Below, piece by piece: positions 1 to 47,670 of a stretch of 47,670 nt of DNA (the first letter of the stretch is position 1; each line of letters starts with the position of its first letter). The stretch lies in the IMG/VR virus record IMGVR_UViG_3300011403_000017, positions 1 through 47,670 of that record. The stretch is one strand, 5' to 3'. The translations under genes and the position numbers were made by a program. This DNA is from a virus. Its lineage: Duplodnaviria; Caudoviricetes. The notes under the pieces are model-generated. The model had not been told where the DNA came from. It ran no database searches and was given only the letters and a program-made list of their open reading frames with translations.

Positions 1-11
1 GTAAGTACGAA
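1..11. repeat. Terminal overlap (identical to 47660-47670), indicating a circular assembly or circularly permuted genome
   Basis: gtaagtacgaa occurs at both ends. Joining the ends gives a continuous UDG reading frame (..SNVCKYE|VPPNVGAKR..). Confidence 0.85.
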
Positions 12-2369
12 GTCCCTCCCAACGTAGGGGCCAAGCGTCAGTCGTTCTACGGGCGTGCCGTAGCCCACGGTATCAACGTAGACCAACAACTTGCCGAACT
101 TCAAGTAGAGATAAATGACATTAAACCCAACTGCATACTCGCTCTCGGTGGTACTGCTCTATGGGCACTCTCTGGAAAGTCCAAGATTAGTAAACACAGA
201 GGGTCCATCATGTGGGGAATGGGTACGAAGTTTGTGTCTACCTATCATCCCGCGCACTTGTTACATTCTGCTGCTGGTGGGGAAATCAAGGGATATTATA
301 ATCGACAAATAATGATCTTTGACTTCAAGCGGGCGTGGGAGGAGTCGGCCTCTCCAACACTCGAACTCCCCTCACGGACGTGTCAGATAGCCAACAACTC
401 ATGGGAGTTACACGAGTTCCTAGAACGTCACAAACGTGACCGCAAGCTCGCAGTAGATATAGAAGCTGGTGGTCATTGTCTCCCCGTCTGCATTGGACTA
501 GCCTTCAATAGACATAGCGGCATGACAGTTCCCTTATGGAACCGGGAAGGTATCTCCACGATACCCGACTCGGACTTGGTGAACATGTGGATCATGCTGA
601 TGCAAGTCTTATGGGAGAAAGATATTGTCGGACATAACTTTAATTATGATCGCGACAAGATCAAGCGGCTTGGATTTGCAATCCGAAGAATTAGTTCGGA
701 CACAATGCTCAAGGCATTCGCAATTAACCCTGAACTCCCAAAAGGGCTTGCATTTAATACAAGTATCTATACAAGAGAACCCTTCTATAAAGATGAGGGT
801 ATGTATGAAGGGAGCTATCGAGATTTATTGCTCGGATGCGCGCGTGATGCTTGTGTCACGTATGAAGTAAATGATGCAATGGATGCGGACTTAGACGAAC
901 TAGGCATGAGGAAGTTCTACGAGAATTTCCTAATGAAACTGCCTGACTTCTATCTCGAAATAGAGAACAATGGATTCCGTGTAGACGAGGCTAAGAGAGA
1001 AGAACTGATTCACAAGTATGTCGAGTGGGACGAACGTCTTGGTTATGAGATGTTCCAACTCGCTGGTGATGACGTAAATCCCTCGTCCCCCAAACAAGTC
1101 TCAGAACTCCTGTTCGATACGTGGCGTCTACCTAAACGTCAAGGGACGGGAGAGGAAGAACTTACCGCGCTTCTGAACTTGCAGAACGGAGTGCGTAATC
1201 CCCAACAGAGGGAGTGGGTAGAGAAGTGTCTTGAGCGTCGGCGAGTCAGGAAGACCTTGAGTACTTATCTCATGGCTATCCCAGACTATGACAACAGGAT
1301 GCGCACTACCTGTTTCATGTGTCTGGAGACTGGTCGGACGAGTACGTCCCAACAGAATCCCCCCATACGTCCTCTCGTAGATACCAAAGGCAAGGGCCGA
1401 CAAGTAGACATGAAGCCTATGGGTACGGCCTTTCAGGTGTTCACCAAGCATGGAGACATTGGGGCTGACGTTCGGTCTATGTACTTACCGGACGAAGGGT
1501 GCGTGTTTGTCCAACTGGACTCCAGTCAAGCGGAAGCGCGTGTAGTCTTCAACTTAGCAACTGACGAGCAAGCATTAAAGGACATAGACGAACATGACTA
1601 TCATGCACTTACTGCGTCGTGGTTCTTTGGTGGTGTGGAGGATGATTACTCCAAAAAGATACTCGGATATGAAAGCCCCATTAGATTTGCAGGGAAGACT
1701 CTACGCCATGCGGGGCATCTTGGCGCACAAAAACGTAGAGCCTCGACAGAACTTAATACGCAAGCCCGCAAATATAAAATTCCCCTCACCATTACAGAAG
1801 CACAGGCAGAACGTGCGCTGAAGATATTCCACCAGAAGCAGCCAAAGATTCAAGGAGTGTTTCACCATGAAGTCATCGAATGTCTCAAACGAGACAGAAG
1901 ACTTATCGCACCCCTCCCCTACGGAATTGACGCGGAACGTGGAGGTATACGTATTTTCTATGAACGATGGGGGGATGACCTTTTCAGAGAAGCTCTTGCT
2001 TACTTACCCCAACGAGCTGTCACTGATAATACCAAAGCAGCTGGTATTAGAATTAAGAAGCAATTCTCAGAAGCGAGAATTATTCTTGAAGCACATGACG
2101 CGCTTCTGTTCAGTGTGCGAACTGAGTATCTCGGAGAGTTTCTCCCAATTGCTCGAAAAGAAATGGAACGACCTATAAACTTCACGGCGTGTAGTCTACC
2201 GCGTCGATTTCTGAAGATACCCTGTGACGTAGAAATTGGAGAGAATTATAGGGACTTGAAGAAGTTCAAGTTCGAGGACGAGGACGGACCTGGATGGGAC
2301 AAACAAACTATGGACTTGTCCCAACTAAAGAAAACTATGACTGAGTTTCTGGTACAGGACGTGGAATGA
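3..2369 (+). CDS. polA: 3' part of a UDG-family-A DNA polymerase fusion (gene begins at 47476 across the junction; ~850 aa total)
   Basis: Frame is open from nt 3. It contains the UDG C-half (ILALGGTA, STYHPA), ExoI AVDIE, ExoII GHNFNYD, motif A QLDSSQAEARV, motif B RFAGKTLRHAGHLG and motif C EAHDA. Confidence 0.93.
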   Translation, partial: KYEVPPNVGAKRQSFYGRAVAHGINVDQQLAELQVEINDIKPNCILALGGTALWALSGKSKISKHRGSIMWGMGTKFVSTYHPAHLLHSAAGGEIKGYYNRQIMIFDFKRAWEESASPTLELPSRTCQIANNSWELHEFLERHKRDRKLAVDIEAGGHCLPVCIGLAFNRHSGMTVPLWNREGISTIPDSDLVNMWIMLMQVLWEKDIVGHNFNYDRDKIKRLGFAIRRISSDTMLKAFAINPELPKGLAFNTSIYTREPFYKDEGMYEGSYRDLLLGCARDACVTYEVNDAMDADLDELGMRKFYENFLMKLPDFYLEIENNGFRVDEAKREELIHKYVEWDERLGYEMFQLAGDDVNPSSPKQVSELLFDTWRLPKRQGTGEEELTALLNLQNGVRNPQQREWVEKCLERRRVRKTLSTYLMAIPDYDNRMRTTCFMCLETGRTSTSQQNPPIRPLVDTKGKGRQVDMKPMGTAFQVFTKHGDIGADVRSMYLPDEGCVFVQLDSSQAEARVVFNLATDEQALKDIDEHDYHALTASWFFGGVEDDYSKKILGYESPIRFAGKTLRHAGHLGAQKRRASTELNTQARKYKIPLTITEAQAERALKIFHQKQPKIQGVFHHEVIECLKRDRRLIAPLPYGIDAERGGIRIFYERWGDDLFREALAYLPQRAVTDNTKAAGIRIKKQFSEARIILEAHDALLFSVRTEYLGEFLPIARKEMERPINFTACSLPRRFLKIPCDVEIGENYRDLKKFKFEDEDGPGWDKQTMDLSQLKKTMTEFLVQDVE

Positions 2370-3962: not shown

Positions 3963-4165
3963 TAATCCCACCACCAAGGTATGAGGAACCAGAAGTACCA
4001 GTCATAGCTGTTACAGAGCACAAGGAAGCAGCTAGGATACGCGCTTACCTCGACGTACCGAACTGGAAGTGCTCGGCGTGTGGCGCCATCATGTTCGGTA
4101 GATGCAAGTTCTGTGCGTACTGCAAGTTCAAGTTGGGGGTAGACACGTGGAAGGAAAAGACATAG
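3959..4165 (+). CDS. Small zinc-ribbon protein
   Basis: WKCSACG..CKFCAYC; GTGA overlap with the upstream stop. Confidence 0.65.
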   Translation: MIIPPPRYEEPEVPVIAVTEHKEAARIRAYLDVPNWKCSACGAIMFGRCKFCAYCKFKLGVDTWKEKT

Positions 4166-4224
4166 ACCTACTAAGAGAGATTTTTGGGGCAGAAAATGTC
4201 GTTGTGATTGATGAGGTGATTCAG

Positions 4225-4449
4225 ATGGAAGGAACTGTCGTACGGCTGTTCTCAGACAAGAAGTTTGGATTCATTCAGGACGCGAACGGAAAGGACTATT
4301 TCTTTCATGCGTCGGACGTGAATGGATTCTTTGACGACCTCGTGGAAGACCTTCAAAGTGGAGAAAAGATTCGTGTGACCTTTGACGTGGTTCAATCTCC
4401 CAAAGGTACGCGTGCAGGTAACGTAACTCGTGTAGATGGAGGTGTATAG
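4225..4449 (+). CDS. Cold-shock domain (CSD) protein
   Basis: MEGTVVRLFSDKKFGFI (RNP1), DYFFHAS (RNP2), KGTRAGNV. SD gaggtg precedes ATG 4225; an in-frame GTG at 4147 is possible. Confidence 0.9.
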   Translation: MEGTVVRLFSDKKFGFIQDANGKDYFFHASDVNGFFDDLVEDLQSGEKIRVTFDVVQSPKGTRAGNVTRVDGGV

Positions 4450-4685: not shown

Positions 4686-7600
4686 CTACTCGTCAGGACT
4701 CCATGGGAAGGGGCGTGATACTTGACCAGGATCATTGCCCCAATTCCACGGCATAAGGTCACGCACTCCCCCACCCGTAGTCAACCAATCATTTTCCTCT
4801 GGTATCAGCTTGGCTACAGACTCACCCTTAGAGTAAATCTGTGTACCCCCTCCAAGCATTGCAGCCCCACCAAATATTGGTAGGAGATCAGGATTTTCTT
4901 TGTAAATCTCATTCAAGTCTTGAATGAACAAGGGAACAAACAACTGAGCTGTCCTGTCTCCTACATGGAATGGATTGTATTCCGATGCACTGAATACATC
5001 CCATGCGAATTTAGTTACAGGATTGAGCTTGTTTACAAGAAAGCGTTCCATCATGTCTTCTTGTGTCTGGGCCTGATATCCTGACCCAAAGCGATGGAAC
5101 TCTCCACTGGATGAGGAAGTAGACCCACCCATGTACATACGCCCATACGCCACGGCGAATTGCAGAAACCCACCGCCAAGATCCAACCGCGCATCTCCAA
5201 CACGTACCTTACCGAAGTCTGCAGAAGTAATGTCATCACTCACTTCTGCATCTTCACCAGCAGCATTCTTTACCAACTGACTAGATATGAACCACGCGGC
5301 GGCTGTAGACAGAGCAGCCTTAGCGTACTGTTGTCTGACGAATGGACTAGCCATGACGTAAGTAGCAGGATTCATCATCCTAATTCTACTGTTCAATAGA
5401 CCAGGAGAGAATAGGAATGGTCCAATCTTACTGACTGCATTCTCTAGTGACAATCCACCCTTTGCAGTCGCGTGTCCTGTAGCTGCATTCACAAACTCTG
5501 CAATCTCTTTGGCGAGTACGAGATTATGGTATGGATTCATGTTCATGGCATCTTCATGCCCAATCTTCCGACTGAATCCAATGTTCTCTCCACCCTTAAG
5601 ATGCACGCCTCCCAATAGACCAGGCATAGCAGTCCTACCTGTATCGACTCCTCTGACTGACATATCCTTTGCGAGATTCAATAGCTTCTCAGTCCTGTTG
5701 ACATTCAAGTGATTGAGGAACGTAATGAATGCGCGGTTAGTCGCTCTGATAGGTACGCCAGCAGTGTTACGCCACACCTTAGAGCCTATCCCCTCACCGA
5801 TACCCATCTCCAACCATTTACTCGCAGTCGCCTCAGCCCTTGGCCCTACGCCCTCACTCGCAGGACTAAACATCTTTACGCCAATTTCCTCACCGAATGA
5901 CGGCATAACCCTACCGTCTGAACTTATCCTTCGACGCATAAGAGGCTTGGCCCGTAAGTCCGCGTCTATCTGCTTATAACTGTCATAAGATAGTCCCTTG
6001 AACATTGCCCAAGACGCCTTCCAAAACTCAGGCGTAGCTATCATAGACAAGCCTTGTCTACCTGGAGCAGACAAGTCAAGCATAGTCGTAGCATTAGTGG
6101 GTACTGCAAGAGCCTCTTTAACCCAACTAAATTCTTTTGCCTTTTTAGCTACTCCTTGTTGTGTAGGAGTTCCCCCTCCAGCTGTTGGAGTATTGCTAGG
6201 AACAGTTGTCGGCCCTCCTCCTCTGGCACCTGCTGACTTAACTCCCGTTGGTGAGAGAATGTCTTCGCTAGTAGCTGGTCGCCCCCTTGACTCTGTATAG
6301 ATATGAAGTAATTCCTGAATTTCTGGACTGTAGCTCCCAGACTTTCGTCCTCCGGGGGTAACGAGGTTTGTTCCCCGTCCTGCACCCTTCCCCCTAAGGA
6401 CTGCTTCGAGGGCATCCGCATGTTGGAAGGCGGTTCCTGTCCCTGTTTTGGCATATATATCACCTAGTCTCTTAATCCAGTCTGTACCATGACCCACGAG
6501 TCCCAGTTGACCGGATACCTGACGCAGATACGTCGCTAGATAACGTCCTACACGCGGGTCATTCATGTCCTTTGGACTAATGACGATATCATACGAAGTT
6601 GGACTATCCTTTCCAATATGCGCAGCCTCGTGGAGTAGAGTCTCTACGGCTGACAACGCAGCAGTTTTGGGGTCATTCGGATTATCCAATATATGTGCAA
6701 AGAGATTTAACAGAATCCCAGATTCAGCTTTGGGCGCGCTAGGATTAGGTATGTGATGCCCATACAGATACCTGTCATCAGGCATATAGATGCCTGACCT
6801 GACTAGTTTCATCTGGTCATATGAGATACCCCGTGCAACTAGAACATCATCAAGAAGTTTGTCGATGATTTGCTGAACAGAACGAATAGCAGGACTATTC
6901 TTGATGAAATCCAATTCATGAGGAAGTAGTCTATCTCCATTGTCAAAGAATACTGTCTCTCGCATGGTTCCACCACGCGGAGCTGAAACAGTACCCATCT
7001 GACCCCACAACTTAGCCAAATCCTTCTGCTTATTACTAGCCATAGGATCGGCTACATACTGATTGACACCTTGTGTTACTTGACTCCAGATATGATCCTT
7101 TACGGACTCACGTTGTACAGGAAATGGATATTCAGGAGACAGTTCTTCGACTTGTGGCTTCAAATCTACTACTACCTCACTTGGTACTCCATTTTTCTCC
7201 TCTCCATAACTGTGCCACTGCTCGAACTGCCACATGCCATTATTTAGTACTTGAATAGTAGTTCCAGTAAATGTACCCGTTCTAGCCTTTTCAGGTATAA
7301 TTATATCTGCTTTAACATTTCCATTATCAAGTGTTATATCAGTAGCTACTATTTTGTCATTTGGATTTCCTGTCAACGTATGTTCTTTAACTGATTCCCA
7401 TGGATTTCTTTTGTAAGAAATCTTACCAGTTCTATTTCTGCTATAGTCAAGAATACTTGTCATGGAATTTTTTCCATCCCATGCATCTTGATCTTCTTTA
7501 AGTAGAGTTTCAAATTTAGTCCCCGTGGGCGTGTCATCTGGAACCACTTCAGGTTTAATATCAAATCCCTCTGGATTCAGTATGTCTTCAGGTTTACCCG

Positions 7601-10295
7601 CAAAACTAGATTTAACCTTAGTTCCATCAGGCATTAACGCTACAGTCTCTATCTTGAAGTGCTGACCACCCAAGATGTACGTAACACTGCCTACACCCTT
7701 ACCACCCGTCGCGCTGGTATCAGAAACTTTCCCAGATTCATGTAGAGTCGTGAAGACTGTGTAAAGATCGTCTTCAGTCATTCCCTTACCATTGTCTTCT
7801 ATTATAATAGAAGCGGGTTTCTTTGTAGTAGAATTAGCATCTGTAATAGTTACTTTAATCTCACCACTCATACCAAGAGTATTGATTGCATCAAGGGCAT
7901 TCTGCATCCCCTCACGCACCATTACAAATGGAAGTGGTTTGCTATATCCACCCGTCAACTCTTTGATAGAGTTCAAGGGATTGACGGTAAAGACCGCCTT
8001 ACCCGTCAATGCATTACGACCCATCGCTAGGGGTTCTTCGGGAGGTACACGTACTTTGGATTCACCTATACCAATATGATGATATCCAGGTGCATCACCT
8101 GAATTATAGGTGGGATCAGTTAAAGGATTCTTACCTGTACGTACTGCTTCTTGCGCAACCCTACGTGCAATAGCCCATTGCAATTCACCTAGATTGTCGA
8201 AATCTTCAGGATTCAATCCAAGTAATCTTGCTTCATTAATAGCTACTGCAACAGGATCATCCATTCCTTTAGTGGTAAGTGCATCTTTAATATTTAATGG
8301 TCTACCCCTCATAGGCAATAAATCATCAGGCCCATATTCAGATAAGTCTCTCATCTCAGGAGGTACTGGGCCTTCCCTAGTCCTATCCTGTATCTCAGCG
8401 TCAATTAAATCATCTATCATGGAGGGCTGAGTAGGCTCTTGTCGAAGCATACCTACGTTAGTCGAAATATCTTGATTTCCTGCGTTAGCAATATTCTCTA
8501 GTCTATTCCTCTCCACTACTCCAGGAAGTAGATTTCCCTGTCCCTCTGGTGGAGGTGGAGCAGGTATATCGTATCCCTCTACCGGACTACGTGGTCCCAA
8601 CGGTGCAGGAAATGCGCCCGCTATACGTTCTCCTGTTTCTTCACCACCAATTCGAGGCTCACCATATGGAGCGCGTGGTGGAGGGAGGGGCGTCAGCGGC
8701 GCGTTTGGATCATCTTCTCCCATTCCTAGTCTGTTTTCTGTAGACGCACGTAATCCCGTAGCAAATTGCTGTAATTTAGCAGGATCTACGGGTGGTAAAC
8801 CAGCAGGATTTTGGTTTTCTTCTGGTTCAAATCCTCTATCAAATTGGGCTACTCTACCAGTCTGTTCTCCTGGCCTAACCTGACGAGATAGGACTAACGC
8901 CATTTCTTCTTCAGTAGGCTCACGTCCTAACATCCTTGTAAAGTTAGCACGTACTTCCTCTGGACTCATAGCTCCGCCACTACCGTCATCAGCATGAGCT
9001 AAAGGAACTTCTCTAAAGGTAGTGTGGGTAGCAGTCCTACCAGCTACTCCATATCCACCCCTCTCCATGTTTTCCCTATAACCTGCTTGGTCTGCTACCT
9101 GATTAGGAACTACATGATCTTCACCCGGAGCAATACCTGTTTGACCCTGACTAATGGGTCCGGGTGCTGGTGTTGGAGGTTGTGGAGGAGGTGCAGTAGG
9201 TCTTTTATCCCCCGTTACAAACAAAGGAGCTACATCACCACGCACCATCTGTGGATGACCTTCAGAGTCAACTAGACCCTGCACAGACACGTATCCCCTA
9301 GCACGCCAAAATGCCACGTTATTTTGATCGGGGGCTGTTATTGTAACTACTTGCTGATTATCAGATAAATGCGTCCCTGGAGGTATGACATTGGGATTTG
9401 TCATATCTATATTGATACCTCCAGAGGGAGATGGAGGTGTACCTAGAGGACCAGCAGGAGGAGGTGGAGGCTTGGGCGGAGGAGGCGTTGGACCCGCGTC
9501 GTCAAACAACATCCCCTGTCCTTGGGGATCAATATTGAAAGGTAGTTTTCCTTGATTTTCGTTAGGTATACCGTATGGTCCAATTTCCGGACCGTGCATT
9601 GGCCCTTCGTGCTCTAATCCAGACGGAGGCTGATACCATTCAGGCTCACGTAAGCCCGCATATGGCAAGTCCTGTTGTGTAGCCCCTCCCATATCCCCTA
9701 CGTTTAGAGGCTTACTCCTACCCTTATACCCTTGATATCCTCCAAACGCACCACCCAATATGCCACCCATTAGACCGCCACCAGCCGTCTGACCAGCGAC
9801 TTCCTCTAATGAGGGCATCTCGTACTTAGATGGACTCCACAGATTTCCTTTGTCAGCCTGATGACGTGGGAACGCGCCGACGGCCCCTTGGACCGCACCA
9901 TGACCCGCAGACCGAGCCGCGTATTTAGCTATTTCTCCCAAGCCCGTCCGCTCTAATTTACCCGCACCAGGAAGGTAGTTTAACCCACCCTCTAGAGCCA
10001 TAATAGAGGGGTCAAATTCCTTTCCCTCCATCCAACGGCCTATACCCTCACCCACAGCCCCACCAATGAATGGGCTAGTTCCAAAGGTAAACGGTGCAGC
10101 AAGGTCGCCTATGGTAGATAGACCGAACCTAACCGCATTAGGTGCGGTAAACATACTCCCAAGGAATCCAGGCTGTTCTTCTTCCTCGTCTTGGTCTAGA
10201 GGACGTAATCCTAGATTGTATGGATCATCATTCGTACCAGAATCTAGAGGACGTAGGCCCAATCCGTAAGGATCATCAGGATTTTGTGGCATCAC
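4686..10295 (-). CDS. Large putative internal virion/ejection (polyvalent-type) protein with GHKL ATPase and HExxH zincin domains
   Basis: 1869 aa; last gene of the virion operon. GHKL motifs REGMQNALDA, IEDNGKGM, GGKGVG and GT; zincin TLLHEAAH..GHGTDW; Pro-rich linkers; C-terminal DFGKVRVG..LDLGGG region typical of large phage internal proteins. Confidence 0.85.
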   Translation of the reverse strand: MMPQNPDDPYGLGLRPLDSGTNDDPYNLGLRPLDQDEEEEQPGFLGSMFTAPNAVRFGLSTIGDLAAPFTFGTSPFIGGAVGEGIGRWMEGKEFDPSIMALEGGLNYLPGAGKLERTGLGEIAKYAARSAGHGAVQGAVGAFPRHQADKGNLWSPSKYEMPSLEEVAGQTAGGGLMGGILGGAFGGYQGYKGRSKPLNVGDMGGATQQDLPYAGLREPEWYQPPSGLEHEGPMHGPEIGPYGIPNENQGKLPFNIDPQGQGMLFDDAGPTPPPPKPPPPPAGPLGTPPSPSGGINIDMTNPNVIPPGTHLSDNQQVVTITAPDQNNVAFWRARGYVSVQGLVDSEGHPQMVRGDVAPLFVTGDKRPTAPPPQPPTPAPGPISQGQTGIAPGEDHVVPNQVADQAGYRENMERGGYGVAGRTATHTTFREVPLAHADDGSGGAMSPEEVRANFTRMLGREPTEEEMALVLSRQVRPGEQTGRVAQFDRGFEPEENQNPAGLPPVDPAKLQQFATGLRASTENRLGMGEDDPNAPLTPLPPPRAPYGEPRIGGEETGERIAGAFPAPLGPRSPVEGYDIPAPPPPEGQGNLLPGVVERNRLENIANAGNQDISTNVGMLRQEPTQPSMIDDLIDAEIQDRTREGPVPPEMRDLSEYGPDDLLPMRGRPLNIKDALTTKGMDDPVAVAINEARLLGLNPEDFDNLGELQWAIARRVAQEAVRTGKNPLTDPTYNSGDAPGYHHIGIGESKVRVPPEEPLAMGRNALTGKAVFTVNPLNSIKELTGGYSKPLPFVMVREGMQNALDAINTLGMSGEIKVTITDANSTTKKPASIIIEDNGKGMTEDDLYTVFTTLHESGKVSDTSATGGKGVGSVTYILGGQHFKIETVALMPDGTKVKSSFAGKPEDILNPEGFDIKPEVVPDDTPTGTKFETLLKEDQDAWDGKNSMTSILDYSRNRTGKISYKRNPWESVKEHTLTGNPNDKIVATDITLDNGNVKADIIIPEKARTGTFTGTTIQVLNNGMWQFEQWHSYGEEKNGVPSEVVVDLKPQVEELSPEYPFPVQRESVKDHIWSQVTQGVNQYVADPMASNKQKDLAKLWGQMGTVSAPRGGTMRETVFFDNGDRLLPHELDFIKNSPAIRSVQQIIDKLLDDVLVARGISYDQMKLVRSGIYMPDDRYLYGHHIPNPSAPKAESGILLNLFAHILDNPNDPKTAALSAVETLLHEAAHIGKDSPTSYDIVISPKDMNDPRVGRYLATYLRQVSGQLGLVGHGTDWIKRLGDIYAKTGTGTAFQHADALEAVLRGKGAGRGTNLVTPGGRKSGSYSPEIQELLHIYTESRGRPATSEDILSPTGVKSAGARGGGPTTVPSNTPTAGGGTPTQQGVAKKAKEFSWVKEALAVPTNATTMLDLSAPGRQGLSMIATPEFWKASWAMFKGLSYDSYKQIDADLRAKPLMRRRISSDGRVMPSFGEEIGVKMFSPASEGVGPRAEATASKWLEMGIGEGIGSKVWRNTAGVPIRATNRAFITFLNHLNVNRTEKLLNLAKDMSVRGVDTGRTAMPGLLGGVHLKGGENIGFSRKIGHEDAMNMNPYHNLVLAKEIAEFVNAATGHATAKGGLSLENAVSKIGPFLFSPGLLNSRIRMMNPATYVMASPFVRQQYAKAALSTAAAWFISSQLVKNAAGEDAEVSDDITSADFGKVRVGDARLDLGGGFLQFAVAYGRMYMGGSTSSSSGEFHRFGSGYQAQTQEDMMERFLVNKLNPVTKFAWDVFSASEYNPFHVGDRTAQLFVPLFIQDLNEIYKENPDLLPIFGGAAMLGGGTQIYSKGESVAKLIPEENDWLTTGGGVRDLMPWNWGNDPGQVSRPFPWSPDE
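10195..10277 (-). repeat. Duplicated N-terminal peptide DDPY(G/N)LGLRPLD in the large protein
   Basis: Two imperfect ~35-nt copies, tctagaggacgt..ggatcatc. Confidence 0.75.
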
Positions 10296-12874: not shown

Positions 12875-13648
12875 TCAAGGCATGATAATCATGAACTGCG
12901 TCTTCTCAGTCACAGTTGGTGGAACTATACTCGTATTTATCAGAACTTCAATTGCAAGCTGAGATAACCTAAAACTAACTGGAACACTGTCTAATATTCC
13001 AACTTCAACAGGTAGTTGCGATAGTCTGGCTATTGCTGTTCCAGGTATCTCAGCAAATACTGCTACTGCCGCCGCTACATTTGTAGATCCAGTCCATGTC
13101 CATTGTGGATTAATCGCAGCAGCAGTAGTTTGAATTTGGTATGCCCCAACCGCATATACCGAAACTGCACCAATACCTGTAACTTGTATTAATCCAGTAA
13201 ATCCAGATGGAGTACTGAAAGTAGCTGCTATTCCTCCAGCAGTTGTACCAGTAATAACTAATGCACCATTAACTGATGGCGTTACACTTCCAGCATTTAA
13301 GGGGGATGATGTTCCAGACGCCCCATTTTGCCGTGAATCATAATTAATTGCACCTGAAAATGCATATGCAGTAGCAGCACAATAAATACCAGATCCACTA
13401 AGCGTTATTACGTGTCCAGATCCAACAACAGGTGTTAGAACATAATGAAATCTGAAAGTAGCTGAATCTGCTTGTGTATATCCCGTTAATGGTGTATAAC
13501 TATTTCCCTTATTATCAGAAATAGTTACAGTACCAAATCCTCCCACCCCAACGATAATAGCTGTTGCACCAGTAGTATTAATGGCATCTAATGATCCGCC
13601 ATTGATTCCAACTGATTTACCAGTCGATGCAACTAAAGCAATAGCCAC
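12875..13648 (-). CDS. Tail fibre/receptor-binding-associated beta protein
   Basis: Thr/Gly/Ala-rich beta composition (ISDNKGNSYT, AGSVTPSVNGALVI); in the tail module. Confidence 0.6.
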   Translation of the reverse strand: MAIALVASTGKSVGINGGSLDAINTTGATAIIVGVGGFGTVTISDNKGNSYTPLTGYTQADSATFRFHYVLTPVVGSGHVITLSGSGIYCAATAYAFSGAINYDSRQNGASGTSSPLNAGSVTPSVNGALVITGTTAGGIAATFSTPSGFTGLIQVTGIGAVSVYAVGAYQIQTTAAAINPQWTWTGSTNVAAAVAVFAEIPGTAIARLSQLPVEVGILDSVPVSFRLSQLAIEVLINTSIVPPTVTEKTQFMIIMP

Positions 13649-14703
13649 TACGAAGTCACTTTCATCCCGAATTGAGCAGCATTAACCGCAGCAACAGTCC
13701 ATTCAATAGGACTTCCTGCATTCGGATCTTGCGCACGCACTTCACTAAAATAAGCCCAACTAGTCAATGGACTAACATTAGCTCCATCACTATCAGTACT
13801 AGCTGATCTAGTTACTGTACATACAGTTCTAGCAGTTGCATCAGTTTTCTGCATGTACAAATTAGCTTGAACACCAAGTACAGTTCCAGCTAATGCCATT
13901 GCTGGATAGTTGTATGTATCCTTTACTCCTACAGTTGAACCAGAGTTATAATCTGATGTGTTTGGAGTTGTCTCATCAACCAATGCACCATGATCAGTTC
14001 CAGTAGAACAAGTTAATCCAGCATTTGATCCAGCAGCGACAGCATCAGTCTGAGGATAGAGTGTTTCGATTTTCACTGCGCCAAGAAAGTCATTACGTGG
14101 AGCAGATCCACTTGTGTCACATATATAAAAATCTTCTACATATGCAACAGTATTAGCAAGATAAGGATTGATAAGACATACACGATCCCATTGTCCAGTT
14201 GTTCCTCCATTTCGCGTATCTGTTGGTCCAGCATTAGTTAATGCAGCTTCAGTTACAGTATCAATCTTCACTTCATATGAACCAGTCGTGTCATGAATAA
14301 TACCCTTAAATTCTAAATAAGTCCAAGAATTAAGAACAATTGCTGTAGTACCAGTAGCCAACGTAGTAGTACCACGTCTAACAAGAAAAACTCCAGCAGC
14401 ACTTACAGATAAAGTAAGATGAACAGTTGTACCTTCACGAATTTGGATGAGATCATTCGTTCCAGTAAATGCAATAGTAGGATTAAAGGCTAACCCAACT
14501 ACAAAACCAGTACTAGCTGGTGATAATGGTTTGGAAATTGCATGACCTGGATTATTTCCATATAATCGAAGTGAATGTGATCCGGTACGAACAGGTGATG
14601 TAGCTGCAATGGCATCAGCTGCGCCACTTGCCCATTTACCAAGAGTGTATATAATACCACTAGTACCGTAGTGATCAAATCCATCCATGAACAATAGAGC
14701 CAT
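13648..14703 (-). CDS. Tail-associated lectin-like (concanavalin/LamG-like) protein
   Basis: MALLFMDGFDHY start, WTYLEFK, YVEDFYICD and WTVAAVNAAQFG, a pattern typical of phage tail beta-sandwich proteins. Confidence 0.6.
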   Translation of the reverse strand: MALLFMDGFDHYGTSGIIYTLGKWASGAADAIAATSPVRTGSHSLRLYGNNPGHAISKPLSPASTGFVVGLAFNPTIAFTGTNDLIQIREGTTVHLTLSVSAAGVFLVRRGTTTLATGTTAIVLNSWTYLEFKGIIHDTTGSYEVKIDTVTEAALTNAGPTDTRNGGTTGQWDRVCLINPYLANTVAYVEDFYICDTSGSAPRNDFLGAVKIETLYPQTDAVAAGSNAGLTCSTGTDHGALVDETTPNTSDYNSGSTVGVKDTYNYPAMALAGTVLGVQANLYMQKTDATARTVCTVTRSASTDSDGANVSPLTSWAYFSEVRAQDPNAGSPIEWTVAAVNAAQFGMKVTS

Positions 14704-23783: not shown

Positions 23784-24308
23784 CTATCCAACCTTTCCAA
23801 ATTTCAACAAAGCCCTCTTTGCCTTGTATTCCTTATCCTTAATTGCCTTACATTCTCTACATTGTCTCCGTATCTTACCATCAGACTTTGTGTACCAATA
23901 AGTATTCTGTTCGGTGAACTCATGACCATTTATACATTGAGTTACATCAGAATACTTACCACGTGCATTGCCAGCCTCCATTTTATCTTGGATATTTTGG
24001 TTATTATCTCCAAGATAAATATGTGCGGGATTCCAGCAACATCTATTGTTACACGTATGGAGAACATGCAGATAAGTCATTTCAGGAGTGTAATCATGAT
24101 ACATCATGGCCGATAACCGGTGGACATAGTAAAATACATGATCAATCATGATTTGACCATATCCACCGGAATTGGTCCCTGAATATTCCCAACAACCCGT
24201 TTCCAAGTTAATGGAAGTTCTTTCATCTAGAAGTCTTTTTACTTTCTTTCCCCAATCACTATCAGGCTCAGGACTTCCAGATTCAGGTGTTGGAATCATC
24301 ATTTTCAA
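23784..24308 (-). CDS. HNH homing endonuclease with C-terminal Zn-binding module
   Basis: GCWEY..GYG..VHRLS..VLHTCNNRCCWNPAHI..N; CINGHEFTEQNT..CREC; AT-rich. Confidence 0.88.
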   Translation of the reverse strand: MKMMIPTPESGSPEPDSDWGKKVKRLLDERTSINLETGCWEYSGTNSGGYGQIMIDHVFYYVHRLSAMMYHDYTPEMTYLHVLHTCNNRCCWNPAHIYLGDNNQNIQDKMEAGNARGKYSDVTQCINGHEFTEQNTYWYTKSDGKIRRQCRECKAIKDKEYKAKRALLKFGKVG

Positions 24309-32677: not shown

Positions 32678-33292
32678 CTAAGCTACCGCTCCACTACGTC
32701 TAAATGCTTCTGCTTCTTCTCTTGGTATCATCTTACCCCAACCATTGTTTACCATTGCTGGTGGTTGATATCCACCCTGTCCACCCCACCTTTGCATCAT
32801 CTGTTGCAACTTACTCTGTTGTGGACTCATTCCACCCTGCATAGATTGCATCCAAGGCGGAGCTTCTCCACCCTGCATTGCAGGCTTCTGTCCTTGTAGT
32901 TCTTGCACAGCTTCAGGATTCTCTTGTGGCATCTGTTGCTGTTGTCCATACATTGGACCCATACTCTGCCCACCCATCTGCCCCATCTTCTGCTGCATAA
33001 ACTGAGGGAGCATTCCACGCATCTGACCCATCTGTTGGCCGAATCTACCTTGAGGGGCCATTGGGCCTTGCCTCATACCCCCACCAAAAGGAGTATTAGC
33101 TTGTGGTTGACCGTATGGATTACCCGGTCTAGGTGATTGTGTTCCACCACCCATCCCAGGATTCTGTCCAAACATTGCGCCCTGTTGTTGCATAGCTGTT
33201 CTGGGTGTACCGTTGTATGGAATTTGAGCGGAACTCATTCCACCGCCTCCACCCATACCCATAGCACCGCGCATAGCTTGACCGAAGGGCAT
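32678..33292 (-). CDS. Gln/Gly/Met/Pro-rich low-complexity protein
   Basis: Composition; SD ggag; between the fascin-repeat gene and terL. Confidence 0.65.
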   Translation of the reverse strand: MPFGQAMRGAMGMGGGGGMSSAQIPYNGTPRTAMQQQGAMFGQNPGMGGGTQSPRPGNPYGQPQANTPFGGGMRQGPMAPQGRFGQQMGQMRGMLPQFMQQKMGQMGGQSMGPMYGQQQQMPQENPEAVQELQGQKPAMQGGEAPPWMQSMQGGMSPQQSKLQQMMQRWGGQGGYQPPAMVNNGWGKMIPREEAEAFRRSGAVA

Positions 33293-38221: not shown

Positions 38222-38543
38222 TGTTTCCTGTGTATCAGGCACGCATAATTCCGGCCCTGCGTTGGTGAACGGGACGACGACTAGACGCGCGTGGTAGGCA
38301 CATCTTACGACCACGGCTCCGCCATCCATCATTTTGCAGAATTTCGCATTGTCCCAAAGGGTGACAAGTAATGAAAAGATTCTTTTGCACCGTCTGTCAG
38401 AAGATTAAGCACGTAAGAGTCATGCCTGCCTCAGTAGACACGCCCAACGCTCCCAATCCTTATAAGCGTGTAGGCGAATGCAGGCGTCACTCCAGTCAGT
38501 CAGTCTATCCCGTCCGTCAGTCTATCCGAAAGGTAAGCGCATA

Positions 38544-39227
38544 ATGTTCCAAAACTCTCTCAAAACTAAGCGTGGGGAATGTGATTGTTGCGGTAAAGTG
38601 GATATCGACATTTACCCCACGCACCACAATATGTCGATGTGCGCGGTCTGTCGGGACGCAGAGATGGCGGCTATTGACGCGGCGTCAAAAGTAAAGGCTC
38701 TCGCCAACGTGTCAGTCGTAGAGGCTAGTCGTAAGATTGACACGCTGGTAGAACTAAAGGCAGACATCTACAACGCAGAGACAGTCCCCTTTATCGCACT
38801 TCAGGCGTCTATTGAGTCAGACGAGTCTATCCCCTCGGCACGTAAGAGACTCGCCCTAGCAGACGAAGTAAAGGCACGGCTCGACGCGTTCAATAAGGCG
38901 ATATTTGACGATGAAGCGGCCCTCATGGTCAAGCGTAATCAGCGTCAGGCATGGCTTGTCCACATGCAGAACGTGGCCGCTGGACTACACGAGTCAGAGC
39001 GTGCCAAGTATAAGCAGCACGACGTTAATTACAAGCCCACAGTCGTCAAGTCAGTCAAGCCAAAGGTCGTAAAGCCTTCTCCCAAGAAGTTCTCCAAGGC
39101 CGAGCTATACGCGGCGGCGACGAAGTATGGCGTCCCGGCACCCGCGGTCCAAGCGTGGGTCACAGCGCGTGGCATCTCCTGCGAGGACGCGGCCCGGACG
39201 TTGGCCGAACAGATGGGCCTGATTTAG
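38544..39227 (+). CDS. Zn-finger/coiled-coil hypothetical protein
   Basis: CDCC..CAVC N-terminus, long helices, possible C-terminal HTH; SD aaggt. Confidence 0.75.
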   Translation: MFQNSLKTKRGECDCCGKVDIDIYPTHHNMSMCAVCRDAEMAAIDAASKVKALANVSVVEASRKIDTLVELKADIYNAETVPFIALQASIESDESIPSARKRLALADEVKARLDAFNKAIFDDEAALMVKRNQRQAWLVHMQNVAAGLHESERAKYKQHDVNYKPTVVKSVKPKVVKPSPKKFSKAELYAAATKYGVPAPAVQAWVTARGISCEDAARTLAEQMGLI

Positions 39228-39254
39228 TTTATCCGTTTCCGAAAGGACGGAACT

Positions 39255-41378
39255 ATGGACAGAAAAACTGCATCAGAACTACTTCATCAAGAGATGAAGA
39301 AAAACGGCCTCACAGGATGGACTGTCAGACTCAATCAGAACGCGGACTCACACTTTCTCGGACTCTGCTCATACAAGGACAAGTGCATCATCTTGTCCGC
39401 TCACCATATCGACATTCACCCTGACCCGGACGTAATCAACACGATTCGTCACGAGATAGCCCACGCGCTCTGCCCCGGCCACGGGCACGACGACGTATGG
39501 GCTGCCAAGGCCAAAGAAATTGGCTGTGACAACACTCTCCCGTGCTCCAATCTCAGTCTCTCACCTCATGTCATAGACGCTATCCGTAGCGGCGCGACGG
39601 TCGAGGTGACATTTGACGAGCACGTAATCCGCACCCCTAAATACACGATTACCCGTCTACAGGACAAGTGCGAAGTCTGCGGTAAAGTCGCAAAGGAACA
39701 GTCCTCCAAGACAATCGTCACGCCGGGTGACACGACTCCAGATATGAAATACACAATTCTGGAGTGTGGTCACGTCGTCTTCAAGAAGATACCCAAAGGG
39801 ACGCCTTTCCACACGTTCCAAGCGTTCGGTGACCCCTCCTGCAAGCATGAATGGGACAAGAATAATTGTCTACTCTGCGGACGTAAGCGCCTCTACAAGT
39901 ATCAGGTCGAGGGAGCCGCCTTTTTAGAAGCGGGCTTGTCCGTAAACATGGGCGCGGCCTGCTTTGATGAAATGGGTTTGGGCAAGACGCAACAGGCAAT
40001 GGCCGTCCTGTATTTCCACGCCGAGTGGAGTCCTACCCTATGGATTGTCAAGTCTGCCCTGAAGTATCAGACAGCCTCGGCCATCATGAATTGGATGGAC
40101 CAGAACGGTAAGTCTGAACACATTCCACAGATTGTCCTTACGTCTAAGGACTACCTGCTCCCTGGCCTGAAGCATTACATCGTGGGTTACGACATGCTCG
40201 TGCCTAAGTCACGCACGTTGAAGAACGGGACTATCGTCAACAGCGGATTCAACATCGAGCAGTTCAATCGTGTGGGCATTAAGTCAGTCGTGCTGGACGA
40301 ATGTCAGCAGATTAAGAACGTGGATTCGAGCCGCACTCAGATGGTCCGTCGAGTCGTCAAGGGCCGTAAAGTAATTCCCCTCTCAGGCACGCCATGGAAC
40401 AACAGGGGGAGCGAGTTATTCCCCGTGTTCAACATGATGGACCCCATGAAATTCCATTCGGAGGAGGGGTTCAAGAACCGTTGGGTAGACTTCGTATGGC
40501 AGGGTAGATTCCGTAAGGAAGCTGGTATCCGTAACATCGTGGCGTTCAAGGAATACACAAAAGACTTGTATATCCGCAGAGAACGCGCAGAGGTGATGCC
40601 AGAACTACCCACGACCAACAGGACGAAGCTGAACGTCGTAATGACCCCTCAAGAGGAGGAGAATTACGACATTGCAGTAGACGAATTCGTTAAGTGGTAT
40701 GAAGAACAGATAGACCACCTGGACGGCGCGTCAATCATCGCGGCAATGTCCAAGATGCGTCACCTCGTGGCCGTCGCAAAGATTCCTGCTACGCTCGAAT
40801 ACGTAGACGAGTTCATCGAGGACACGGACAGGAAAATCTGCGTATTCGCGCACCACAAGGACGTGCAAGAGATTCTCTACGAGGAACTCAAGCAGAAATA
40901 CGACAGTGAAAAGAGCGAGCCACGTATTCCGGTCTTTCAATTCAAGGCTGGTGGGGACGTAAACGAAACGCAGTCCAAGTTCAATCAGGCCAAGCGTTGT
41001 ATCTTGGTCGCCTCACAATTGGCCGCAGGTGAGGGACTGAACCTCCAGACATGCTGCGATTGTGTAATGCACGAGCGTCAGTGGAACCCAGGTAAAGAGG
41101 AACAGTGTGAGGGACGTTTCGTGCGTATAGGCTCAGTCGTTGCCGCAACGAAGGATGCGCCCGCAGGATTCGTGTCAGCCGTATACACGCACCTCGAAGG
41201 GCTGACGACTACGGACCCGAAATTGGACGCAATCGTCGAGCGTAAGCGTCGGCAGTTCCACGCGGTCCACAACAAGGGTGAAGCCGTTAAGTGGAGTGAG
41301 GACAGCATTATGAAGGAACTGGCCGAGTCCATCGTAAACGCCCACAAGCGTAAGAAGACACAGCAGAAGGCGTCGTAA
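39255..41378 (+). CDS. SprT-like metalloprotease-Zn-ribbon-SNF2 family helicase/translocase fusion
   Basis: LGLCSY..IILS..NTIRHEIAH..GHDDVW; CxxC motifs; SNF2 YQVEG, DEMGLGKT, LDECQ, LSGTP, GEGLNLQ and WNPGKEEQCEGRFVRIG. Confidence 0.9.
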   Translation: MDRKTASELLHQEMKKNGLTGWTVRLNQNADSHFLGLCSYKDKCIILSAHHIDIHPDPDVINTIRHEIAHALCPGHGHDDVWAAKAKEIGCDNTLPCSNLSLSPHVIDAIRSGATVEVTFDEHVIRTPKYTITRLQDKCEVCGKVAKEQSSKTIVTPGDTTPDMKYTILECGHVVFKKIPKGTPFHTFQAFGDPSCKHEWDKNNCLLCGRKRLYKYQVEGAAFLEAGLSVNMGAACFDEMGLGKTQQAMAVLYFHAEWSPTLWIVKSALKYQTASAIMNWMDQNGKSEHIPQIVLTSKDYLLPGLKHYIVGYDMLVPKSRTLKNGTIVNSGFNIEQFNRVGIKSVVLDECQQIKNVDSSRTQMVRRVVKGRKVIPLSGTPWNNRGSELFPVFNMMDPMKFHSEEGFKNRWVDFVWQGRFRKEAGIRNIVAFKEYTKDLYIRRERAEVMPELPTTNRTKLNVVMTPQEEENYDIAVDEFVKWYEEQIDHLDGASIIAAMSKMRHLVAVAKIPATLEYVDEFIEDTDRKICVFAHHKDVQEILYEELKQKYDSEKSEPRIPVFQFKAGGDVNETQSKFNQAKRCILVASQLAAGEGLNLQTCCDCVMHERQWNPGKEEQCEGRFVRIGSVVAATKDAPAGFVSAVYTHLEGLTTTDPKLDAIVERKRRQFHAVHNKGEAVKWSEDSIMKELAESIVNAHKRKKTQQKAS

Positions 41379-43089: not shown

Positions 43090-43524
43090 ATGAATAGAAA
43101 TTATTCACCCTTTCAAGTAATAATTTCTTTACCTGAGGGGGACCATAAAATCTGTTCGATATGTAATGAAATGAAACCTCTAGAAGAATTCTCACCAGAG
43201 AAAAGAAGAACAACAGGAAGACAAGCTCAGTGTAAAATCTGTATTCAACGTCTAAGACTTGAAACACGAACTCCTGAAATTACACGTCGCAATAACTTGA
43301 AATGGAATTACAATATTTCACCAGAAGATTATCAGAAGATGTATAAGAGTCAGGAAGGTAAATGTGCAATTTGTAAAAAACCATTTGAACTCTTGCATAT
43401 TGACCATTGCCATAATTCAAACAGAATACGAGGATTACTTTGTACCAATTGCAATTTGGGAATAGGAAATATGCAAGATGATATCCAAATTCTGCAAAAT
43501 GCAATTGATTACTTAAAGAGGTAA
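43090..43524 (+). CDS. Endonuclease VII-family endonuclease
   Basis: CSIC..CKIC; QEGKCAICK..LHIDHCH..IRGLLCTNCNLGIG; AT-rich. Confidence 0.88.
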   Translation: MNRNYSPFQVIISLPEGDHKICSICNEMKPLEEFSPEKRRTTGRQAQCKICIQRLRLETRTPEITRRNNLKWNYNISPEDYQKMYKSQEGKCAICKKPFELLHIDHCHNSNRIRGLLCTNCNLGIGNMQDDIQILQNAIDYLKR

Positions 43525-43529
43525 AAAGA

Positions 43530-44483
43530 GTGGATATTATACAAGCTCCGAAAAAGAATGTTATATTCGATGCTACGATTTTATCATCATTGATGGGATG
43601 TGCGCGCTTCACTGATATACGTTTCAATCATCGTCTAGTCGCTCTAAAGGGAAAGTCAAACTCCCTTGAGGTAGGCAGTCTCATTCACAAGGTGTTTGAG
43701 GTCTTCTACAAGCACAGGATAGATGGATTTCCTGCTTCTGTATGCATAGGGAACGCGCTGACTGCGGGGCAATTGTTCGTCATGGGTTGTCCTACGTGCT
43801 CGAATCATGTCGCAGATACTCCCCCCTCCTGCGGGCACGACGCAGAAGAATATCCGGGTATGCAGAATACGCCCGAGCATTCCCAAGGATTTACGGTGGG
43901 ATGGCGCTTTGCGTTGGAAACATGTGAGGCATACTTCGCGCACTACAAGAACGACTCTTGGATTCCCCTCGCTGCGGAATGGGTCAAGGGTGACGTAATC
44001 TACCAGGACGATGAAATACGCGTCATGTGGAAGGCGAAGTTCGACTTGACCATAGACCATGAACAGCTAGGCATTATGTCTATGGACCACAAGACGTTCA
44101 AGCAGAATCGTGACAAAACGACTCTCAGTAATCAATTCTCTGGTCACTGCGTCTTGTTGAAGGCTCGTCAGGTCATGGTCAACAAGATTGGCTTGCAGAC
44201 TACCAAGAAGATTCCTGAGCGTCTGACACGCGAACTCGTCCACTTCTCGGCGGCGCGTATACACGAGTGGCAGTCAGAGATTGTCCCTTACTACGCATAC
44301 AAGTATATCCAGTTCAAGGAGTCGGGCTATTGGCCTCCCAACTACACGCATTGTGACAACGTGTTCGGTGCGTGTCCATACAAGCAGGTATGCGAGGGCG
44401 ACCCTGACATGAGAGAAGAAATTCTCCGTAACAACTATCAACTGGCTCCTGTATGGGATCCCCGTAATAAGGAGGTTGAATGA
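43530..44483 (+). CDS. PD-(D/E)XK (Cas4/RecB-like) exonuclease
   Basis: GSLIHKVFE, AKFDL..MDHKT, C-terminal C..CPYKQVC. Confidence 0.8.
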   Translation: MDIIQAPKKNVIFDATILSSLMGCARFTDIRFNHRLVALKGKSNSLEVGSLIHKVFEVFYKHRIDGFPASVCIGNALTAGQLFVMGCPTCSNHVADTPPSCGHDAEEYPGMQNTPEHSQGFTVGWRFALETCEAYFAHYKNDSWIPLAAEWVKGDVIYQDDEIRVMWKAKFDLTIDHEQLGIMSMDHKTFKQNRDKTTLSNQFSGHCVLLKARQVMVNKIGLQTTKKIPERLTRELVHFSAARIHEWQSEIVPYYAYKYIQFKESGYWPPNYTHCDNVFGACPYKQVCEGDPDMREEILRNNYQLAPVWDPRNKEVE

Positions 44484-44808: not shown

Positions 44809-45621
44809 ATGCCTACTATGTCGAGTGTCAACTTTGACGCACTTTACTGCATGTTCAAGGGCGAGCCGGGGACGCGTAAGTCTACTCAGGCTCTTAGTTT
44901 TCCGGGGCCACAGTTCTGGTTTTCATGGGACCGTAAGATGAACGGTATTTTCTTGCCCATGAAGAAGTGGAACATCGACCCCTCCACTATCTCATACGAG
45001 GACTATGACGATTGGACTAAGCCCAAGCAGAAGTTAGAACAGCTTCAGACCAACTGCCCCTATAAGACTATCGTTCTGGATTCGATAACCTCATGCGCGG
45101 ATATGACTCTGCGTCAAACGACTAAACTCAAATACGGGCAGAAGAGAGCAAGTGGAGCGCAGGCAGGCAAGCTAGTTGCGGGTATTGCAGTCAACGAAAT
45201 AGAAGACTACAACGCTGAGTCAGCCGCACTCCAAGAGCTTATCGCCCTGACGAAAGACATTCATTCGTATCACAGGGTCAACATCATTTTGATTGCACAC
45301 GTCGTCAAAGCAGAATACCGCGACACGACGAAGAACGTGACACATATTTCCCGTCAAATCGTTACGGCGGGAAAGAACGTGGCGGCGAAACTCCCTGCGT
45401 ATTGTGGTGAAGTCTATCACTTCAATATCAAGAGAGGATTCGACGCTACACAAGGAGGTGACTATAGTCTATTGACAGAGCACACAGGGGACGATTTTGC
45501 ACGCACTGCATTAGGACTTGACAAAGAAATTGTGTTTGGTGATAAACCCTTCTACGATACTTGGATTAAACCAGCTATTGCAAAGTTGGGAGCAATGGAT
45601 GCACCCGCAACCAAGTTCTGA
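44809..45621 (+). CDS. AAA_24/Sak4-like P-loop ATPase (recombination/annealing)
   Basis: GEPGTRKST, TIVLDSIT and NIILIAH; lies between the nuclease and SSB-like genes. Confidence 0.8.
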   Translation: MPTMSSVNFDALYCMFKGEPGTRKSTQALSFPGPQFWFSWDRKMNGIFLPMKKWNIDPSTISYEDYDDWTKPKQKLEQLQTNCPYKTIVLDSITSCADMTLRQTTKLKYGQKRASGAQAGKLVAGIAVNEIEDYNAESAALQELIALTKDIHSYHRVNIILIAHVVKAEYRDTTKNVTHISRQIVTAGKNVAAKLPAYCGEVYHFNIKRGFDATQGGDYSLLTEHTGDDFARTALGLDKEIVFGDKPFYDTWIKPAIAKLGAMDAPATKF

Positions 45622-46051
45622 TGATTTGATTCGTCTTGAAGCTAAGACAATAAAGGATGTTTGTTGGTTGTGGCAAGGCTCTAAGAGTGGTGATGGATAC
45701 GGGCGTATCAGATTTATGGGCAGGCTTGTAGGAACACACAGACTCTCAGCAGCTATTTATCTTGGCTACAATATATTTGATGAAACTTATCAGGTATTAC
45801 ATAACGCTGAATGTCCAAACAGACACTGTTGGAATCCTGACCATCTTCATATAGGAACCAACGTGGACAATCATGCAGAGAGACAACCAAAATCTCATTG
45901 TGTTAATGGACATGAGTTCACTCCAGATAACACGTTCATTAATCCAAGGGGTAGGAAGGAATGCAGAACATGTCGCCGTAACGCCACACAACACTACAAA
46001 CGACAGTTAGCAGAAGCAATACGCAAGTACAACGACACAACGAAGTTCTAA
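45599..46051 (+). CDS. HNH homing endonuclease with Zn-binding module
   Basis: CWLWQG..GYG..THRLS..VLH..CWNPDHL..N; CVNGHEFTPDNT..CRTC. Confidence 0.88.
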   Translation: MHPQPSSDDLIRLEAKTIKDVCWLWQGSKSGDGYGRIRFMGRLVGTHRLSAAIYLGYNIFDETYQVLHNAECPNRHCWNPDHLHIGTNVDNHAERQPKSHCVNGHEFTPDNTFINPRGRKECRTCRRNATQHYKRQLAEAIRKYNDTTKF

Positions 46052-46911: not shown

Positions 46912-47205
46912 ATGAGAACACGAATGCAGGACACTAACAAAATAATTGGACGTATCATCAAAGTAAGCAAATCTGGTTGGGGGTTTATCTCCTCCAGAGA
47001 CATCGAATTTACGCGCATTTTCTTTCATTGGACTGCCATAAGACAAGACTCTTTACCATTTCTAGAGTTACGGACTGGCATGTTAGTAGAGTTTACCCCG
47101 CTCCAAATACCTGGTAAGGGTTGGCGTGCTGTGCATGTACGGGTAGTCGAAAGAGAGAAGCCTGATGAACCACCCACCTCTGAAATGCCCGCACTGTCAG
47201 AATGA
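46912..47205 (+). CDS. Cold-shock domain protein (second copy)
   Basis: GRIIKV..GWGFIS (RNP1), IFFHWTAI (RNP2), LRTGMLVEF..GKGWRAVHV. Confidence 0.85.
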   Translation: MRTRMQDTNKIIGRIIKVSKSGWGFISSRDIEFTRIFFHWTAIRQDSLPFLELRTGMLVEFTPLQIPGKGWRAVHVRVVEREKPDEPPTSEMPALSE

Positions 47206-47305: not shown

Positions 47306-47483
47306 TTTCCAGAAGGAACTAGTGACTGACCTGATTAAGAACTGGAGTGATGCAGAATTGGAGGCATACGTTGCCGAACTAAATACACGCGCTGTCCAAC
47401 TCGACAATTGGATTAGACACGTCAAGACTCTCCGTAAGAAGAAGCGCAAGAGGCCAATGGACACGGGGGTGCGTGGTGGATAG
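47298..47483 (+). CDS. Hypothetical protein (61 aa)
   Basis: SD gaggtg; helical with a basic tail. Confidence 0.7.
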   Translation: MDDFQKELVTDLIKNWSDAELEAYVAELNTRAVQLDNWIRHVKTLRKKKRKRPMDTGVRGG

Positions 47484-47670
47484 GAAATACGTCCCTGGTT
47501 GTGGCCCCGTTGGAGCCAAGCTCATGATTCTGGGCGAAGCCCCTGCGCGTGAGGAAACATTTGCAGGACGCCCCTTCGTCGGGGCAAGTGGACGCGAATT
47601 GGATAGGATTCTTGCGGACGCAGGGATTAACAGGTCGGATTGTTGGATAAGTAACGTCTGTAAGTACGAA
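47476..47670 (+). CDS. polA: 5' part of the UDG-PolA fusion: family-4-like uracil-DNA glycosylase domain (continues at nt 12)
   Basis: VPGCGP..LMILGEAPAREE..GRPFVGASGRELDRIL..CWISNVCK. Confidence 0.9.
   Translation, partial: MDRKYVPGCGPVGAKLMILGEAPAREETFAGRPFVGASGRELDRILADAGINRSDCWISNVCKYE

Follow-up and report, generated by a model that had tools for sequence, protein, structure and literature searches.

The window analysed here, that is, the whole stretch of 47,670 nucleotides, is a near-complete, circularly permuted phage genome (47.7 kb). Genes for a terminase, an SU10-type portal and an adaptor lie on its minus strand, and genes for an exonuclease, a Sak4-like protein, a UDG-PolA protein and a primase-like product on its plus strand. 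The gene of interest (39255..41378, +) sits among early recombination and replication genes. A PD-(D/E)xK exonuclease (43530-44483, +) and a Sak4-like annealing protein (44809-45621, +) are encoded in the same early arm, and a UDG-PolA fusion gene, coding for a Family A DNA polymerase with an N-terminal family-4-like UDG domain, starts at 47473..47670 and, the window being circularly permuted, continues at 1-2369 (+). On the other side the gene has a conserved neighbour (38478..39227, +) for a 249-aa protein with a Cys-rich N-terminus and a helical body, which was the nearest upstream ORF of at least 100 aa in 57 of 62 loci. Searches in Pfam, PHROG and NCBIfam and at the level of structure found no family or fold match for this protein.

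Positions 39255-41378 (+) form a single uninterrupted frame of 707 aa; its ATG is preceded, at a distance of 7 nt, by a ribosome-binding site (AAGGA, 39243-39247). Three Pfam domains, all above their curated cut-offs, were recognized in the product: SprT-like (PF10263) at residues 11-92 (E 1.7e-9; 37.9 bits against a cut-off of 25.6), SNF2-rel_dom at 216-502 and Helicase_C at 515-626. The gene thus encodes, as an earlier note on this DNA had it, a SprT protease and an SNF2 motor in one chain. The order of parts is supported by homologues and by an AlphaFold2 model of the full-length protein (mean pLDDT 84.6, pTM 0.81), which matches SNF2 motors.

The SprT-like zinc metalloprotease domain spans residues 1-99 (39255..39551, +), as judged from Pfam, conservation and fold, and PF10263 was matched by all of 78 N-terminal sequences. 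The N-terminal signature pointed out in the earlier note is present at residues 35-82: LGLCSY at 35-40, HEIAH at 66-70 (the H66/E67/H70 codons are at 39450-39464), the third His at 78 and W82. Further conserved residues of the domain are C38, H51, D53, H55, C91 and C97, from which we infer a putative second metal site. The protease is followed by a conserved family-specific linker (residues 100-131; 39552..39647, +), made of a DAIRSG helix and a beta hairpin. Confidence of the model is low at residues 121-135.

Next come two zinc modules, the first with C139, C142, C171 and H173 (39669..39773, +; 105 of 105 relatives), the second with C196, H198, C205 and C208 (39840..39878, +; 102 of 105). 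The Cys/His ligands had been noticed before and described as interleaved. The ligands are there, but as two consecutive modules that belong to the motor. We also considered, from stand-alone SprTs, that the modules could be part of the protease; the profile alignment was ambiguous and protease-less motors retain the modules, so that this assignment was dropped. The modules are ascribed to the motor, and the first to its ancestral part, because they persist in forms that have lost the protease and because 80 of 150 distant representatives consist of a zinc module and a motor with no protease.

The motor itself is complete, in agreement with the earlier reading. SNF2 ATPase lobe 1, with its helical insert, occupies 39900..40760 (+; Walker A at 39966-39989, Walker B at 40296-40307), and lobe 2 (Helicase_C, with motif VI) occupies 40797..41132 (+). 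All the motifs are in place (Walker A DEMGLGKT at 238-245, DECQ at 348-351, SGTP at 377-380 and QxExRxxRxG at 617-626), and so are the features that define the SNF2 family, namely two RecA lobes, motifs I, II, III and VI and the helical insert. By analogy with the family, the motor would possess DNA-stimulated ATPase activity and translocate on duplex DNA. Intein-like inserts with a homing endonuclease were seen at the motor Walker A of three relatives (L149, 8573-11374; P0325; P0387).

Could the fusion be a sequencing artefact, the possibility that the earlier note had named as fatal to its claim? The identical protein occurs in three IMG/VR contigs, which may be the window's own source, and the whole gene is found with zero differences in one contig of one public run (X1), again possibly that source. 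An unrelated soil run (X22, record 25), however, spans the region from the linker to Walker A, and hundreds of distinct relatives show the same domain order. We therefore rejected the artefact explanation; the architecture is real, widespread and apparently undescribed.

When the N-terminal model was compared with known structures, the best match was the SPRTN protease domain (6mdx; Z 11.0, rmsd 2.4, 98 residues aligned, 1-99 against 40-155), bearing out the SPRTN-like character proposed for the domain, with projannalysin (Z 10.6) tied within 1 Z; proabylysin (9.2), selecase (8.9) and Wss1 (5xbn, 7.6) came next. We know of no selecase-type protease that is a DNA enzyme. A cysteine switch like that of projannalysin was also considered and put aside, as no paper describing it was found. 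The fold match stops at residue 99 (SPRTN 155), and beyond that point the profile alignment is of low confidence. The DNA-binding zinc subdomain of SPRTN lies further on, at 167-214 according to the accessible text of PMC9240642.

Other parts of the window deserve a brief description. The structural arm ends with a gene for an 1869-aa protein (4686-10295, -), whose C-terminus is conserved and whose cargo is variable (a GHKL ATPase plus an HExxH domain, in only 3 of 22 genomes); it is likely a polyvalent ejection protein. In the same arm, the product of 13648-14703 (-) matches phrog_2448 and, weakly and below the cut-off, a Pfam aerolysin family (E 7.6e-4). A 204-aa low-complexity protein rich in Gly, Gln and Met is encoded immediately before the terminase (32678-33292, -). 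A cold-shock-domain gene (46912-47205, +) and a gene that clusters with it (4102-4449, +) flank the polymerase-primase block. Endonuclease VII-like and HNH genes (43090-43524, 45518-46051 and 23784-24308) are patchy among relatives and likely mobile. A scan of the window gave no Rfam or tRNA matches, and predicted promoters did not exceed chance (7 vs 4.8 ± 1.8).

The window phage was detected in groundwater and freshwater-sediment runs, and among the runs listed as carrying it there was no RNA run from which expression could be read. Matches in bacterial and archaeal genomes were confined to two MAG contigs, which we treated as binned phage DNA and discarded as evidence for a host; one of them (L097) contains genes of the phage itself.

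A search with residues 1-212 retrieved 603 clusters at 90% identity, and full-length fusions accounted for 117 of the best 120. Since such a set is biased toward the protease, we repeated the search with a protease-less relative (L096). Its best 120 matches comprised 105 proteins with an N-terminal HExxH, 13 full-length proteins devoid of the domain and two fragments. The domain-architecture search proposed in the earlier note has thus located the fusion in most of the closest relatives, whether these were chosen by the protease region or by the motor. Among the 105 fusions picked by the motor alone, H66, E67, H70, H78, W82 and zinc module 1 are invariant. Together, these invariant positions indicate a protease that is intact and under selection, as far as alignments can tell. 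Conservation of the protease (mean identity 0.55) equals that of the motor (0.52-0.62 across its windows), and the linker, usually lost together with the protease, is conserved to the same degree. As a sign of co-evolution, rank correlation did not set the protease (0.19) apart from the last motor window (0.23).

Other samplings gave a similar picture. In the ESM Atlas the family falls into two all-viral clusters, 95% and 81% SprT-positive. In a set anchored on Sak4 (51 of 80 loci examined, picked for upstream sequence and with some redundancy), the motor was present in 49 of 51 loci, making it a core early gene, and 34 of the 38 loci with the N-terminal region covered were fused, the other 4 being protease-less. 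A set of 80 metagenome loci anchored on SprT contained 59 fusions, 12 genes cut by a contig end, one multiply frameshifted gene, five distant stand-alone SprTs and three loci with no SprT match. Within the window's family, the loci from which 99 distinct motor frames were drawn contained no SprT frame apart from a motor. The joining of a zinc protease to an SNF2-type DNA motor is thus a feature of a large group of uncultured phages from soil and sediment. A few relatives bear names, assigned automatically by JGI, that hint at SMARCAL1/ZRANB3. Among cultured phages, none of 1019 matching records covers 80% of the fusion protein and the SprT matches shown are stand-alone genes, in keeping with the earlier remark that phages usually encode SprT and SNF2 separately. 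In a single case, an unrelated phage (L362, 1371-3600), a bare 439-aa SNF2 gene is followed by a stand-alone SprT gene.

The fusion is real, but the protease is an optional part that has repeatedly been lost, a point that escaped the earlier reading. In a motor tree of 131 rows, a sample enriched for protease-less forms, 21 rows had no protease; Fitch parsimony placed a fused protein at the root and counted 14 changes, mostly on single tips, of which about 13-14 are losses (two of the loss groups lack supported separation). SprT was absent from the entire genome in four 100% complete genomes and in one 91% complete genome. Losses usually take the protease and the linker and spare the zinc modules; protease-less forms begin near the ITRLQ-C boundary. 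They are nearly always clean deletions, and partial remnants are few: an apparent first protease helix in P0175, the linker in L149 and one degenerate half domain in L121. The protease is therefore dispensable for these phages, and the motor is the core. The available part of PMC7213743 cautions that conservation of a protease need not make it necessary for a phenotype.

Across the 22 genomes compared, six of which are protease-less, the presence of the protease was not tracked by any core gene. We had considered a crosslink-forming phage gene as a partner; none emerged from these 22 genomes, and the UDG domain was matched in all of 32 genomes, with or without protease.

A profile search at 50%-identity clustering took the comparison further back. 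It showed the ancestral protein to be a zinc-ribbon SNF2 of about 520-550 aa. Among the best 150 representatives, 116 lack a SprT/HExxH domain, 17 (three of them fragments) carry one before Walker A, and 17 have a SprT domain inserted in ATPase lobe 1, between Walker B and motif III. All 17 inserted forms retain HExxH...H and the four motor motifs, and for one of them (L368) the insertion was verified at the DNA level, in a phage whose early genes are the same. In a FastTree phylogeny of the protease (102 columns, deep nodes weak), the inserted domains form their own clade (support 0.988), which also includes a protein whose domain sits N-terminally (P0459), and the window's family forms a separate one (support 0.835). 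Inserted and window-family proteases share 28% identity on average, less than the 35% that the window family shares with stand-alone SprTs. Two separate protease clades at different sites imply that SprT joined the motor lineage at least twice. Four additional N-terminal SprT fusions fall outside both clades, and two representatives have a divergent HExxH domain.

Two more representatives (P0357 and P0395) carry phrog_3754 instead, and one stand-alone homologue of this family is annotated as 'putative peptidase'. The family has no Pfam match; judging by eye, we take its Cys...His pattern to be like that of a papain-like cysteine peptidase. A stand-alone phrog_3754 gene was seen upstream of the motor in one locus (L411, 5900-6289). 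In the wider group (76 loci, with up to 10 kb fetched on each side), 69 loci showed no such peptidase, four had it fused and three as a separate upstream gene. Because stand-alone peptidases lie upstream of the motor in these 3 of 76 loci, some of the N-terminal fusions could be accidents of neighbourhood. Simple fusion of neighbours is possible for the N-terminal forms, but not for the insertion. A similar short helical C-terminal tail was seen by eye in the 249-aa upstream protein and in two stand-alone peptidases (L392, 8513-9040; L384, 5063-5677); in these proteins it is possibly a shared targeting module.

The repeated, independent joining of a protease to one motor lineage favours a real coupling. 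Our preferred reading, which we hold at slightly better than even, is that the protein is an SNF2 DNA motor with a SprT zinc protease at its front, and that the protease cuts proteins that the motor meets on phage DNA. In its favour are the catalytic residues H66/E67/H70/H78, kept in all 105 fusions among the motor-chosen relatives, the lack of fission in the window's family, the 17 insertions among 150 representatives and a fold that matches SPRTN best. Against it stand the 116 distant representatives and the complete genomes that do without a protease, the lack of a co-varying core gene and the nearly equal fold scores of selecase-type proteases. On balance, comparison of the sequences gives good support to, and suggests, a protease and a motor that work together.

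Going by its family, the motor would track DNA in recombination and replication. The zinc-ribbon motor would serve as a double-strand translocase for recombination and fork remodelling, and would do so with no protease. A bound protein in its path would be pushed or unfolded by the motor, leaving it to be cut by the tethered protease. Tethering would also keep a small, possibly promiscuous protease on the DNA. The blocking proteins are probably host-derived, and tightly bound or crosslinked. The benefit would then depend on the host, and most lineages would be expected to keep the protease and some to drop it.

Of the single-chain DNA-tracking protease proposed earlier, the intact protease and its repeated joining to the motor hold up. 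None of the substrates named there is supported, and covalent crosslinks in particular are not, given that no core gene co-varies with the protease and that UDG is found in all 32 genomes; crosslinks are a possibility within the motor-coupled reading, one option among others. A bolder version would have a one-chain 'proteo-translocase', built several times, that unfolds and cuts roadblocks, perhaps to counter clamping or crosslinking host defence proteins, and that would give prokaryotic viruses their first dedicated equivalent of crosslink repair by FANCJ and SPRTN. We mention it tentatively, as it is rather doubtful. FANCJ is a single-strand helicase and SNF2 motors track duplex DNA, so the analogy is a loose one.

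The motor might instead be a mere carrier. The protease would be an early anti-host effector with one host target, such as a repressor or a defence protein, and the motor would provide early expression and a location on DNA, with translocation unneeded. Phage SprTs are patchy and have been proposed, in the accessible text of PMC7824862, to target host proteins. The frequent gain and loss of the protease would suit such a role, as would the stand-alone peptidases of the same early region, the bare SNF2 adjoining a stand-alone SprT in L362 and the fold shared with IrrE/PprI. Yet the protease is not fast-evolving, no fission is seen in the window's family, and the insertion into an ATPase lobe in 17 representatives is hard to ascribe to co-expression alone. 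We consider this explanation unlikely, though worth keeping in mind.

Self-processing is an improbable alternative. The protease would cut its own chain, for example at the low-confidence linker, and so release, time or destroy the motor. The starting point of the protease-less forms near the ITRLQ-C boundary and the cleanness of the deletions are consistent with this, and, as far as the accessible parts of these papers go, autoproteolysis has been demonstrated for SPRTN (PMC9240642) and suggested for the peptidases of polyvalent proteins (PMC5512222). However, the product would be the common protease-less motor, leaving little reason to retain the domain, and the internally inserted forms could not free an intact motor. 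That the SprT fold is a DNA- or protein-binding module, its proteolysis being incidental, seems very improbable: inactive Wss1-like folds are described for Tiamat (bioRxiv 10.64898/2026.09.30.754977, available in part), but here every one of the 105 fusions, and of the 17 inserted forms, retains the catalytic glutamate.

SprT proteases are frequent in phages, none with a substrate known so far, and here one is tied by evolution to a DNA motor. The system offers at least two independent geometries, together with natural pairs with and without protease at up to 69% identity. It provides a small single-chain enzyme for asking whether prokaryotic SprTs are DNA-linked proteases, and a model for how motor-driven unfolding feeds a protease. 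The fusion may also give a lead to a new class of host proteins by which phage DNA is obstructed.

How does the protein compare with known systems? We found no description of a SprT-SNF2 fusion in the literature, subscription journals being thinly covered and the supplements of PMC5512222 and PMC7824862 lying outside the scope of the search. Among phage proteins, the closest kin of the protease are the stand-alone SprT-like proteins (PF10263; phrog_1006 and kin), which share the domain (probability of the profile match, 99.96); the N-terminal region of the fusion has matches in 1000 cultured-phage records. Those are solo genes of ~150-200 aa, whereas in the window protein the domain is part of a fusion, with an HHIDIHP segment and a DAIRSG linker peculiar to the family. 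ArdC and IrrE/PprI also join a zincin fold to DNA binding, but without an ATP motor. The motor shares its motifs and fold with prokaryotic and phage SNF2 translocases (SsoRad54, 1z63; phrog_62; ZorD; DrmD; DpdE), and its NCBIfam scores are all far below the cut-offs. To our knowledge, no motor of these types carries SprT. In jumbo phages, SNF2 proteins have been proposed as stand-ins for UvsW, according to the available text of PMC7824862.

Polyvalent proteins such as P1 DarB/DdrB also combine a zincin and an SNF2 domain in one polypeptide (Iyer et al. 2017, PMC5512222). As described in the main text of that paper, where the term 'SprT' is absent, their SNF2 domain is coupled to an adenine methylase, Glu serves as the third zinc ligand, and delivery of the protein takes place at invasion. 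The window protein, in contrast, has no methylase (its 707 residues are filled by protease, zinc modules and motor), has His78 as the third ligand and is encoded in the early replication arm.

SPRTN and Wss1 share with the window protein the protease fold, HExxH and a third His. The window protein differs from them in being a single chain with SNF2, in having an optional protease and in that the zinc subdomain of SPRTN was not aligned; by Pfam it has no ubiquitin- or PCNA-binding domains. Access assisted by a motor is documented for SPRTN, with FANCJ as the partner that unfolds the crosslinked protein before SPRTN cuts it, in the accessible part of bioRxiv 10.1101/2024.11.26.625192. We file the fusion as a SprT-like member joined to an SNF2 family member and not as a crosslink protease; by analogy, it may work as SPRTN does with FANCJ.
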